From the NCBI GenBank assembly GCA_020381345.1, contig GCA_020381345.1_3636.1: a stretch of 64,000 nt of DNA; one strand, 5' to 3'. The stretch is from a phage. The position numbers were made by a program, and so were the translations under genes. Below, in pieces: positions 50,065 through 51,755 of this stretch (its first letter is position 1; each line of letters starts with the position of its first letter). A model generated the notes under the pieces. The model searched no databases and was not told where the DNA came from. It was given only the letters and a program-made list of their open reading frames with translations.

Positions 50065-50403
50065 ATGGCGGATACAACTAAAAAGCGTCGCCGTAGAGGC
50101 AGACCTCTGAAAGAGGAGTCCAACGCCATTCAGCTAGAGAAGAACATCCTTGATATGAAGGAATCTTTTATAGCGATGGTTCCAGAAGCTCACAAAGTTT
50201 TAAGAGAGCTGATGTTGGACCCGAAAACCAAACAAAATATTCGTCAAAGCATTGCAGAGTATGTTCTTGACAAGGCAGACCGAATGCAGGAAGAATATGA
50301 TGAGATGTTTGGTGAAGAGGAAGAGGTGGTAGTAGAAGAGGCTGAAAAACCAGCACCTTTTATGCCGTTTACCACAGAAATACAGCCTGTTAGCAATAGC
50401 TAA
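50065..50403 (+). CDS. hypothetical protein with Arg-rich N-terminus and acidic C-terminus (112 aa)
   Basis: ATG 50065 with RBS GGAGG; N-terminal KKRRRRGRP. Confidence 0.55.
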   Translation: MADTTKKRRRRGRPLKEESNAIQLEKNILDMKESFIAMVPEAHKVLRELMLDPKTKQNIRQSIAEYVLDKADRMQEEYDEMFGEEEEVVVEEAEKPAPFMPFTTEIQPVSNS

Positions 50404-50412
50404 AATATTTTC

Positions 50413-50441
50413 TTGACAAACTTTGCTTAACAGTGTAATAT
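50413..50441 (+). promoter_or_regulatory. sigma70 promoter upstream of the tRNA cluster
   Basis: TTGACA, 17-nt spacer, TAATAT, about 60 nt before the first tRNA. Confidence 0.55.
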
Positions 50442-50499
50442 TGTAAACATGGTCTCCCACCTTTTCTGGCGGCTAAGGTGTAAAAGAAAGCCACCCAGT

Positions 50500-50574
50500 G
50501 CCCTGTTAGCTTAGTGGATAAAGCAGCGGCCTTCTAAGCCGTTGACACTGGTTCGAGTCCAGTACGGGGTGCCA
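50500..50574 (+). tRNA. tRNA-Arg (anticodon TCT)
   Basis: Hand-folded cloverleaf: acceptor GCCCTGT/ACGGGGT, anticodon loop CTTCTAA, T-loop TTCGAGT, encoded CCA. Confidence 0.7.
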
Positions 50575-50704
50575 AGTTCTTTTTAATGTAGCTTACTTTA
50601 GCAGAGTAAATCTTCGGCAAGTGGCGGTAACCACTTTACCGATACCTCATAGTTAGTGGTGAGAACACTAGCTATTTTAAAAAGAATTTAAATATTAGTA
50701 TTTA

Positions 50705-50792
50705 GGTGAGTTAATTCCGTAGGGGTAGCGGGGCAGACTGTAAATCTGTTATCATTGCGATTCGGGTGGTTCGACTCCATCACTCACCACCA
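50705..50792 (+). tRNA. tRNA-Tyr (anticodon GTA), long variable arm
   Basis: Acceptor GGTGAGT/ACTCACC, anticodon loop CTGTAAA, T-loop TTCGACT, CCA; 88 nt. Confidence 0.6.
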
Positions 50793-50906
50793 AATTTATA
50801 TTTTTAAATGCATAAATCATACAGATAATGGCATTGATATTTATCGTCGTTTATACTAGTCACTAACTGCTCGAAAATCAGTGTCATTATCAGTATTGTT
50901 TATAAA

Positions 50907-50997
50907 AGAGGGTAGGGAGCAATGGTGCTCAAGCGGTCTTGAAAACCGTCCCGTTGAGGATTACTCGATGATGGTTCGATTCCATTATCCTCTGCCA
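50907..50997 (+). tRNA. tRNA-Ser (anticodon TGA), type II
   Basis: Acceptor AGAGGGT/ATCCTCT, anticodon loop CTTGAAA, T-loop TTCGATT, CCA; 91 nt. Confidence 0.6.
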
Positions 50998-51095
50998 TAT
51001 TGTTGACCTTGTAATTAAGCGAAAGCCGGAAGCAGAACCGGATTATCAAATGTTACAGTCGTCATCGCCGACTAGCAACATGGTCAACATACTGA

Positions 51096-51192
51096 GCTAG
51101 GTAAGCCCTTTGGCAAGGGCGAGGATTTTTAATCCTGAAAATAGACGAGGTAGTCGTTGAATACATAGGTGGTTCGATTCCATCACCTAGCA
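51096..51192 (+). tRNA. atypical tRNA-like element (97 nt), anticodon uncertain
   Basis: Acceptor GCTAGGT/ACCTAGC, D-arm GCCC/GGGC, T-arm GGTGG-TTCGATT-CCATC, but non-canonical anticodon arm, 29-nt extra arm, A at position 8, no CCA. Confidence 0.35.
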
Positions 51193-51199
51193 CCTTTTT

Positions 51200-51275
51200 G
51201 CTGATGTAGCACAATTGGTAGTGCAATTGATTTGTAATCAATAGGTTGCAGGTTCAAGTCCTGCCATCAGCACCA
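51200..51275 (+). tRNA. tRNA-Thr (anticodon TGT)
   Basis: Acceptor GCTGATG/CATCAGC, anticodon loop TTTGTAA, T-loop TTCAAGT, CCA. Confidence 0.7.
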
Positions 51276-51276
51276 T

Positions 51277-51351
51277 GGCCCTGTAGCTGGAAGGTTCAAG
51301 CAAGCGACTCATAATCGCCAGACGGTGGTTCAATTCCACCCAGGGCCACCA
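51277..51351 (+). tRNA. tRNA-Met or Ile2 (anticodon CAT)
   Basis: Acceptor GGCCCTG/CAGGGCC, anticodon loop CTCATAA, T-arm GGTGG-TTCAATT-CCACC, CCA; D-stem weak. Confidence 0.55.
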
Positions 51352-51362
51352 AATAATGAATA

Positions 51363-51439
51363 CTCCGCGTAGCTCAGCTTGGTAGAGCGCCTGATTTGGG
51401 ATCAGGAGGTCGAGTGTTCGAATCACTCCGTGGAGACCA
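51363..51439 (+). tRNA. tRNA-Pro (anticodon TGG)
   Basis: Acceptor CTCCGCG/CGTGGAG, D-arm GCTC-AGCTTGGTA-GAGC, anticodon loop TTTGGGA, T-loop TTCGAAT, CCA. Confidence 0.7.
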
Positions 51440-51485
51440 CTTTCAGTTATACTTTAAACATATACAAACAAAAGGAACCTTTAAA

Positions 51486-51755
51486 ATGTATACACTTAAA
51501 ATTGTAGAGCGTGTAAATCCAACCCATACCGTAGATTTTCGTGACGATTTCAATCCTCTGGCTGTAAATCTTCGAGAGTCATATCATGAACTCAGCTGCG
51601 ATGCAGTGGTGGTCTTTTTTGAAGACAACTCTGAAGGGGCGGTAGCTTGTGTTGTTGATAGTGAGCAGAAGTTTTATATTTACAGAGATGTAGATGCATA
51701 CTTGATGAATGAAAATGCAGTTACTGTTAGAATCATCCACCGAGTGCCTCGATAA
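51486..51755 (+). CDS. hypothetical protein (89 aa)
   Basis: Track ORF 51396..51755 overlaps tRNA-Pro; internal ATG 51486 used. Confidence 0.45.
   Translation: MYTLKIVERVNPTHTVDFRDDFNPLAVNLRESYHELSCDAVVVFFEDNSEGAVACVVDSEQKFYIYRDVDAYLMNENAVTVRIIHRVPR

Follow-up and report, generated by a model that had tools for sequence, protein, structure and literature searches.

A conserved five-arm tRNA-like RNA in the tRNA operons of rV5-like and related phages, possibly a stand-in or decoy for host tRNA-Lys

Why does the tRNA operon of a coliphage contain, among ordinary tRNAs, a tRNA-like gene with five arms, and what maintains it there? The question is raised by a 64,000-nucleotide (nt) stretch of phage DNA (contig GCA_020381345.1_3636.1 of assembly GCA_020381345.1, hereafter the window), in which a 97-nt element occupies positions 51096-51192 of the plus strand, from G1 to the discriminator A73. 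It sits among tRNAs of the same strand, downstream of a promoter-like site. The window belongs to an rV5-like coliphage of the genus Vequintavirus, since positions 50380-51500 share 99.8% identity with Escherichia phage ECML-10 and 97-99% with many other rV5-like phages. As set out below, the element encodes a stable RNA of tRNA shape that selection has maintained. The family of which it is part, conserved and previously undescribed, consists of five-arm tRNA-like RNAs that many phage genomes leave unannotated or annotate wrongly, and a function is proposed for the element from its sequence. A literature search for a prior description of such a five-arm element found nothing specific.

Several approaches recover the element. 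The Rfam tRNA model (RF00005) matches 51096-51192 with 35.5 bits (gathering score 29, E = 0.00095 for the whole window), and a covariance model of the family itself (R1, described below) with 101.9 bits. ARAGORN reports 51096-51194 as 'tRNA-??? (atcc)', with a four-base anticodon. The unconstrained minimum free energy (MFE) fold is a five-helix cloverleaf of -34.2 kcal/mol (z = -4.09, a value equalled by none of 200 shuffles), and the Rfam alignment concurs with it on the five helices. No open reading frame of 60 amino acids or more crosses the element. The fold, together with conservation accompanied by covariation, establishes 51096-51192 as a real gene beyond chance. An initial annotation of the window had already singled it out as an atypical tRNA without encoded CCA, and the coordinates then proposed are exactly those found by Rfam.

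The acceptor stem pairs GCUAGGU (51096-51102) with ACCUAGC (51185-51191) over 7 base pairs (bp), four of which show compensatory changes among the relatives, and is followed by A8 and A9 (51103-51104). The D arm, GCCCUU-UGGC-AAGGGC (51105-51120), has a 4-bp core, extended by the invariant U14-A21 and U15-A20 to 6 bp with a 4-nt loop in both the RNAalifold and the MFE fold; these two pairs never vary, so covariation can neither confirm nor refute them. Next come an unpaired G at position 26 (51121) and the anticodon arm AGGA-UUUUUAA-UCCU (51122-51136), which in the Rfam alignment consists of a 4-bp stem, flanked by the unpaired G51121 and G51137, and a 7-nt loop with the anticodon UUU at 51128-51130. 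The initial annotation called this arm non-canonical, which holds for its stem but not for its canonical 7-nt loop, and it gave the extra arm 29 nt; the variable region in fact measures 31 nt (51137-51167), of which 15 form the hairpin GACGA-GGUAG-UCGUU (51144-51158) between GAAAAUA and the 3' flank GAAUACAUA. The T arm, GGUGG-UUCGAUU-CCAUC (51168-51184), is canonical, and its C56 (51175) is the partner of G19 (51113). At the 3' end, A73 (51192) is followed by CC (51193-51194), five U residues (51195-51199) and, from 51200, tRNA-Thr, so that CC is encoded and the terminal A of CCA is not. The body is non-canonical in its A8/U14, predicted long D stem, anticodon stem one pair short and 31-nt variable region; the acceptor stem, T arm and G19:C56 elbow are normal, and the whole adopts the L shape of a tRNA. 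In other genera, the element begins 1-2 nt past the CCA of the preceding tRNA in nearly all copies.

Is this structure maintained by selection? It was examined in 27 distinct variants over 22 pairs: those of the acceptor, D and T stems, three pairs in the anticodon stem and the tertiary pair 19:56. Standard pairing is found in all 594 of the 594 cells, against 34-50% in slid controls whose partners were shifted by 1-3 columns. Changes on both sides occur in 10 of the 22 pairs, the tertiary G19:C56 among them, and the observed covariation score was reached by none of 500 shuffles. Compensatory changes are present in every helix. The acceptor stem exists as GCUAGGU/ACCUAGC, GCUGGGU/GCCCAGC, GCCUGGU/ACCAGGC, GCAGGGU/ACCCUGC and ACCGGAU/AUCCGGU, the D stem, three pairs of which covary, as GCCC/GGGC, GACC/GGUC and GCGG/CCGC, and the anticodon stem as AGGA/UCCU, AGGUC/GACCU and GGGC/GCCC. 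In nine variants G19:C56 has changed jointly to U:A; this switch is probably one event in one clade, and it matches the prediction of an L-shaped elbow.

The extra-arm hairpin is present in nearly all variants, usually with 5-10 bp, and differs among them in sequence and length, with compensatory changes; it is weaker in a few arms of type B. The most conserved part of the molecule is formed by the two unpaired strands next to this hairpin, a 5' strand GAAAA(A)UA and a 3' strand (G/U)AAUACAUA. AAUACAUA is invariant across the 27 aligned variants and GAAAAUA is near-invariant in the family, L067 being the sole divergent copy. Among Vequintavirus copies no change is seen in the 97 nt, in contrast to their immediate surroundings, where the bases that directly precede G1 and the number of U residues in the 3' run differ.

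One widespread type of extra arm, absent from the short hairpin of the window, carries a conserved 12-nt loop, GAACUAACAGUA (GAAUUAACAGUA in L039 and L048). Its carriers are L014, L018, L019, L023, L033, L037, L039, L048 and L067, and the stems beneath the loop covary (GCCA/UGGC, GUC-G/CGAC, AGCG/CGCU, UUCC/GGAA). The conservation of this loop in the most divergent members suggests a specific contact. A kissing interaction of the anticodon loop (UCCA) with the extra arm (UGGA), seen by eye in some Seunavirus and Mydovirus copies, was considered and dropped: UGGAG pairs inside the extra hairpin, and the motif is missing from type-B arms.

How far does the family extend? A blastn search with the window element finds it nearly unchanged in 129 Vequintavirus and Avunavirus records, and a Seunavirus copy used as query retrieves 179 records of phages of Escherichia, Salmonella, Klebsiella, Cronobacter, Erwinia, Enterobacter, Raoultella and Proteus. 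Motif scans add further copies in IMG/VR and metagenome contigs, many of 137-152 kb. The covariance model R1, built from 17 variants, gives 88.9-123.3 bits to 49 members, at most 31 bits to ordinary tRNAs and at most 27 bits to true class II tRNAs. Its signature, present in full in the window copy, consists of A8, a D loop UUUG(G/U)(C/U)AA, G26 and, ahead of the T arm, the two flanking strands GAAAA.. and AAUACAUA. The initial members had all been found through the 3' motif, and the search was redone with a degenerate pattern from the 5' half; among 31 loci it yielded only one new member (L067, 98 bits), so the family appears narrow. It comprises 50 copies and 28 distinct sequences, never more than one copy per fetched locus; at least five genera have kept it, and its carriers are Vequintavirinae together with uncultivated phages related to them. 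A deletion chimera in phage V18 scores 33.5 bits with R1. In V18 (L004:1177-1243) and in O157 typing phage 4 (L005:~1130-1232) the 5' part of tRNA-Tyr is fused to the 3' part of the element; the acceptor strands no longer pair, and tRNA-Tyr, tRNA-Ser and the element are lost.

An origin from the host or a prophage was rejected, since blastn against 5,426 Escherichia coli genomes gave no match to the element and the motif was equally absent from the 185,579 species genomes of bacteria and archaea that were scanned for it. A recent paralogue of the co-resident Tyr, Ser or Gly tRNA was likewise rejected, global alignments showing generic similarity only. The labels of deposited copies are inconsistent: tRNA-Lys, tRNA-OTHER, tRNA-Pseudo, tRNA-TERM, tRNA-???(atcc) or none. 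In some records small coding sequences for a 'hypothetical protein', or in one case a pseudo 'HNH endonuclease', are annotated over the element (L012:185-268, L017:1486-1687, L002:1579-1698, L016:602-2029); these annotations are probably spurious. About 18 records deposited as 'Campylobacter phage' (e.g. MG065635, MG065653-MG065690) are 98-100% identical to rV5-like coliphages over the tRNA cluster, and are likely to reflect mislabelling or contamination. Genes for HNH homing endonucleases occur in or beside the tRNA cluster of relatives such as 241Ecol014PP (OR062943.1 44006-45472) and SSE121 (L012:516-1010), which fits the notion of tRNA clusters as hotspots for mobile elements.

Between genera, changes in the anticodon-like loop go together with changes in the discriminator and in the 3' tail. 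Copies of the Henunavirus type and the most divergent ones (L014, L023, L039, L045, L048, L067) have a 4-bp stem and a 7-nt loop N-A-UCA-A-N. In Seunavirus and Mydovirus the arm is AGGUC-[CAUCCA / CUUCCA / CCUCCA / CAGCCA]-GACCU, with 'CCA' invariant in the loop and the two preceding bases variable, and G1-C72 and C2-G71 are invariant. Every copy of these UCA and NCC types has U73 and an encoded CCA. The four Avunavirus variants have the loop UUUAUAA with U or C at 73 and the tail ACA, a combination that, to our knowledge, matches no E. coli identity set; IleRS requires A73. The five Vequintavirus variants, that of the window included, have the loop UUUUUAA with A73, a combination confined to this genus, and the tail CCU or CAU. 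Encoded CCA has been lost in the rV5/Av-05 lineage. From its occurrence in the most divergent members, the UCA loop with a type-B arm is likely to be ancestral and the window form derived. The anticodon UUU and A73 of the window copy are the E. coli lysine identity set given in PMC9976931. In bacteria glycine identity resides in U73, G1-C72, C2-G71, C35 and C36 (PMC9976931), so that the Seunavirus and Mydovirus copies carry a glycine-type set.

These observations lead to the reading favoured here, namely that under attack by tRNA-targeting immunity the element serves as a stand-in or decoy for host tRNA-Lys; this reading is put forward tentatively, as a real possibility still short of an even chance. 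Since UUUUUAA and A73 form the lysine identity set, the element would be read by proteins that recognise tRNA-Lys(UUU). It would be transcribed with its neighbours from the promoter near 50413 and cleaved by RNase P at G1, and RNase P cleavage at tRNA-Thr would leave a CCUUUUU tail, which would then be trimmed and the CCA end completed by the host CCA-adding enzyme. RNase T stalls at a 3' CC and would leave ...ACC for addition of the terminal A, and some CCA-less tRNAs of phage T4 are reportedly matured in this general way. rV5 has no homologue of the tRNA nucleotidyltransferase of phage CB7 (PMC7344957). The attackers countered would be nucleases of the PrrC/RloC or PARIS type. The element might act as a lysine-charged substitute, its odd body making it a poor nuclease substrate, or as an uncharged decoy that soaks up the nuclease; a decoy was among the options of the initial annotation and is compatible with all that was found.

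There are precedents for both the target and the altered stem. The own tRNA-Lys of phage T5 neutralises PARIS (PMC11464382). The nuclease AriB cuts within U36AAUC/A41, U39A abolishing cleavage and A41C substantially inhibiting it (PMC12409363); the element reads U36AAUCC41 at these positions. A phage tRNA-Thr that has lost its 27:43 pair still decodes ACA and resists P2-OLD (PMC12445682), which makes a 4-bp anticodon stem compatible with function and even with nuclease resistance. Moreover, Thr(UGU) and Tyr(GUA), both present in the operon of the element, are isoacceptors reported as nuclease targets. Differences in loop and discriminator by clade, and the presence of UUUUUAA with A73 in 5/5 Vequintavirus variants, also favour the stand-in or decoy.

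A number of points weigh against this reading. A literature search for data on expression, processing or charging of the element found nothing specific. The terminal A of its CCA is unencoded, as opposed to an encoded CCA in 6/6 neighbours, the tail drifts in sister lineages (CAU, ACA), and the discriminator is U or C in Avunavirus. Most family members have 6-nt (or 8-nt) loops with A, C or U at position 33, and glycine-type copies adjoin a canonical tRNA-Gly, so that ordinary decoding was probably not what the ancestor of the family did. The unpaired flanks, the most conserved part, find no explanation in an anticodon-based role. The switch to UUU and A73 is a single evolutionary event, and drift of the loop is possible (compare UUUAUAA in Avunavirus). 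Deletions in V18 and O157 typing phage 4, both natural isolates, have removed the element together with Tyr and Ser, so that phages can do without it in the laboratory. The extra arm could clash with LysRS, since this is a class II enzyme and such enzymes approach the tRNA from the side of the variable loop. Finally, specific adaptation to PARIS is not apparent, as the neighbouring phage tRNA-Thr keeps the host-like UAAUCA.

Several of the same features are accommodated by the strongest rival, in which the element is a tRNA mimic or scaffold and its anticodon plays no part in its action. Its function would reside in the conserved core and the flanks GAAAAUA and AAUACAUA, the Lys-like loop being an incidental result of A/U drift; a host or phage protein with affinity for the tRNA shape might be bound or sequestered by it, or it might be a regulatory RNA. 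The flanks are indeed the most conserved part, while the loop, discriminator, tail and extra hairpin change between genera. In the rV5/Av-05 lineage the loss of encoded CCA is accompanied by drift of tail and discriminator, and the Avunavirus loop is one base from that of the window and lacks a matching discriminator. Most members, with their 6-nt loops and variable position 33, point the same way, as do the canonical tRNA-Gly next to glycine-type copies and the dispensability seen in V18 and O157 typing phage 4. There is also a precedent in tRNA-Other of Bacillus cereus, a pseudo-tRNA without a role in translation and yet with a phenotype (PMC3399842). On the other hand, the loop is constant within each clade while other sites vary, loop and discriminator match a cognate identity set in the NCC/U73 and UUU/A73 classes, and the mimic has no known partner protein or target. 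It is considered possible but doubtful. An extension of the decoy idea to the whole family seems unlikely, though it deserves mention: all members would be chargeable, non-decoding tRNA mimics serving large enterobacterial phages as RNA decoys or shields against tRNA-directed immunity, with the identity set re-tuned in each genus to the host tRNA under attack (NCC/U73 glycine-type, UCA/U73, UUU/A73 lysine-type).

Could the element instead be an ordinary tRNA-Lys that raises translation of AAA and AAG codons in phage genes? Its canonical 7-nt loop, U33, UUU and A37, together with A73, agree with this, as does the label tRNA-Lys in several deposited genomes. However, tRNA-Lys(UUU) is encoded by many genes in E. 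coli and is the only Lys isoacceptor there, which leaves no rare codon to serve. The 4-bp anticodon stem, 31-nt variable region, A8/U14 and missing CCA are at odds with such a role, and the homologues in other genera have other or unusable loops. Supply of lysine codons is accordingly improbable.

A degenerating pseudo-tRNA, the functionless relic that was one of the possibilities first envisaged, would explain the unencoded CCA, the non-canonical anticodon arm, an Rfam score just over threshold (35.5 against 29) and the deletions in V18 and typing phage 4. It is largely refuted by the covariation: none of the 594 cells is unpaired in the 27 variants, 10 pairs including a tertiary one have changed in a compensatory manner, the unpaired flanks are invariant, the 97 nt stay invariant in the genus while adjacent bases vary, and the element is kept in at least five genera. 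The relic is thus very improbable. A quadruplet-decoding (frameshift) tRNA with an 8-nt loop and the anticodon AUCC is suggested by the ARAGORN output and by a stem AUUUU/AAAAU that can be drawn, but this four-base anticodon was rejected and is extremely improbable, because the alternative fold is 3.5 kcal/mol worse (+0.9 against -2.6 kcal/mol for the isolated hairpin) and its stem is not conserved, being impossible in Seunavirus, Mydovirus and Henunavirus copies, while the AGGA/UCCU helix covaries. Scarcely credible in turn is an intron-containing tRNA, another early proposal, or a relative of selenocysteine tRNA (tRNA-Sec) or of opal suppressors: these could account for the extra 31 nt, for the predicted 6-bp D stem, 4-nt loop and long extra arm, and for the UCA loop of Henunavirus-type relatives with 37.6 bits on the tRNA-Sec model, but the insertion lies in the variable region, outside the anticodon loop, is much too short for a group I intron, is highly conserved and matches no Rfam intron family at E <= 5, and all tRNA-Sec scores remain below 47, with 7/5 geometry, an A or U discriminator and, in the window, UUU.

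The operon in which the stand-in or decoy for tRNA-Lys would act also contains six ordinary tRNAs on the plus strand, each with an encoded CCA by reading of the sequence. All six had been proposed in the initial annotation and are confirmed by ARAGORN, Rfam or both. The consensus promoter placed before them is likewise found, as a sigma-70-like match only (TTGACA-17-TAATAT, 50413-50441, ~59 nt 5' of tRNA-Arg), and is the presumed start of the tRNA-cluster transcript. tRNA-Arg(UCU) (50500-50574) is called by ARAGORN and by Rfam with 67.8 bits. The class II tRNA-Tyr(GUA) (50705-50792) has 39 bits with the Rfam tRNA model (50705-50789; gathering score 29) and received no ARAGORN call, either in the whole window or with the sub-range alone. 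The class II tRNA-Ser(UGA) (50907-50997) is found by ARAGORN only, its match in Rfam being a sub-threshold one to tRNA-Sec (39.8 bits); in the rV5 genome paper tRNA-Ser was likewise detected by ARAGORN alone, and six tRNAs are given there with no mention of the seventh element (PMC3606486). tRNA-Thr(UGU) (51200-51275; Rfam 79.5 bits) and tRNA-Pro(UGG) (51363-51439; Rfam 66.4 bits) are both also called by ARAGORN. In all, ARAGORN agrees with the boundaries first drawn for Arg, Ser, Thr, Met-cat and Pro, and departs from them in leaving Tyr uncalled and in the 51096-51194 'atcc' form of the element.

The anticodon stem of the phage tRNA-Thr, AUUGA/UCAAU, contains the C-N-G motif on neither strand by direct reading; this motif is a reported determinant of P2-OLD cleavage (PMC12445682). 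The same tRNA retains the host-like U36AAUCA41 around the AriB cut site (PMC12409363 for the site). The tRNA with anticodon CAT (51277-51351; ARAGORN and Rfam) is labelled Met by ARAGORN and in most deposited records, and the initial annotation left it as Met or Ile. Its best E. coli matches are genes annotated as tRNA-Ile (full-length matches of 76-82% identity, with a median of two sites per genome), a pattern that fits the ileX/ileY type. It is not an initiator, since G1 and C72 are paired. The evidence favours Ile over Met, and the gene is probably a lysidine-dependent, AUA-reading tRNA-Ile2.

The spacers of the cluster hold further structured or possibly mobile pieces, distinct from the atypical tRNA. 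Directly 5' of tRNA-Tyr lies a 130-nt structured element (50575-50704, plus strand), missing from rV5 and pangalan, where the Arg-Tyr spacer is 5 nt. It folds into a closing helix of ~18 bp around three hairpins (z = -3.4), with six compensatory pairs in seven sequences, and has no Rfam match. It is found in 177 phage records, down to ~74% identity, in Phapecoctavirus, Justusliebigvirus, Tequintavirus and phages deposited as infecting Pseudomonas and Acinetobacter; it stands beside tRNA genes in 6/6 loci inspected, and directly 5' of tRNA-Tyr wherever annotated. With it, phage tRNA clusters may harbour a second RNA family that has not been described before. In the window, tRNA-Tyr has an additional base in its D arm; the Phapecoctavirus Schickermooser carries the identical allele, rV5 and pangalan a different one, so that the 130-nt element and tRNA-Tyr look like a horizontally exchanged module. 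The Tyr-Ser spacer (50790-50906) forms a long near-perfect hairpin with a core of ~15 bp (z = -4.6, 0/200 shuffles as good), present in 114 records, all of them Vequintavirus genomes. In the spacer that precedes the five-arm element (50998-51095), ~68 nt (~51012-51080) match unrelated temperate phages at 87-90% identity: in the lambda-like E26-Berryhill the match lies between Q and S, and in phage D6 it lies 24 nt from tRNA-Ser(UGA) on the opposite strand; Salmonella phage vB_SenS_ST1UNAM also has it. This piece may be a remnant or a spacer that travels with tRNA-Ser(UGA).

The five-arm gene is carried by more than 170 deposited phage genomes, including phage-therapy candidates and BASEL reference phages, and is unannotated in many of them; with the covariance model it can now be told apart cleanly from ordinary tRNAs. 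For the rules of tRNA architecture and for tRNA-scaffold engineering, the interest lies in a natural tRNA fold that accommodates a five-way junction, a short anticodon stem and an A8/U14 swap without loss of its elbow. With a Lys-type loop beside Thr(UGU) and Tyr(GUA) in one operon, the element is a candidate example of phage tRNAs carried as an answer to anticodon nucleases, and the natural deletion mutants V18 and O157 typing phage 4 provide ready-made knockout controls. If the joint change of triplet and discriminator between genera has the meaning proposed, it would be a clean natural example of tRNA identity switching. If the family-wide mimic reading were true, this would be the first RNA-based anti-defence tRNA mimic, as far as the searchable literature shows.

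It remains to compare the element with known RNA classes. With canonical tRNAs the window copy shares an Rfam score above threshold, a cloverleaf with a 7-bp acceptor and a 5-bp T stem, the G19:C56 elbow, and a 7-nt loop with U33. It differs from them in the invariant A8 and U14 in place of U8 and A14, in an anticodon stem of 4 rather than 5 bp and in the size of its variable loop; most of its relatives have A33 and 6-nt loops, and the homologues in other genera fall below the RF00005 gathering score. Compared with tRNA-Lys(UUU) of the E. coli type, the UUU anticodon and A73 are present, and the class I body (5-nt variable loop) and the encoded CCA end are not. tRNA-Sec (RF01852) is the best-scoring Rfam family for copies outside Vequintavirus (23.2-37.6 bits, gathering score 47), with scores driven by the D arm and the UCA loop, and shares the predicted 6-bp D stem with a 4-nt loop, the long extra arm and, in Henunavirus-type relatives, UCA. 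The Rfam scan gave no tRNA-Sec match on the window element. Membership was rejected on an acceptor/T geometry of 7/5 rather than the 8/5 (a 13-bp helix) of bacterial tRNA-Sec, a discriminator that is A or U instead of G and the sub-threshold scores; the UCA forms have A33, and the window copy has UUU.

tRNA-Other of B. cereus resembles the element as a tRNA-like gene-finder call without a settled identity, but it is chromosomal and bacterial, unrelated in sequence and different in architecture. T4 RNA C and RNA D are said to be stable non-tRNA RNAs within a phage tRNA cluster, co-transcribed and processed with the tRNAs, and pseudo-ToxI of phage phiTE, from a related phage group, is reportedly an RNA decoy against abortive infection; these are conceptual parallels only. 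Class II tRNAs (Ser, Leu, Tyr), of which Tyr and Ser are true members among the operon neighbours, share the stem-loop between anticodon and T arms, the canonical acceptor and T arms and the G18G19/T-loop elbow. Only a few unpaired nt stand beside the extra stem of class II tRNAs, whereas the hairpin of the element is bordered by 7 and 9 conserved unpaired nt; the A8/U14, predicted 6-bp D stem, 4-bp anticodon stem and UUU anticodon set it further apart, and no relative has a Ser, Leu or Tyr anticodon. The closest functional counterparts would be the tRNA-Lys of T5, active against PARIS, and the phage tRNA-Thr that resists P2-OLD. These are canonical class I tRNAs with proven decoding and resistance, whereas the element has an extra arm, no encoded CCA and, in UAAUCC at 36-41, the host-like U39. 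Like them, it would be a phage-encoded tRNA for an attacked isoacceptor, with an altered anticodon stem that includes the loss of the 27:43 pair.

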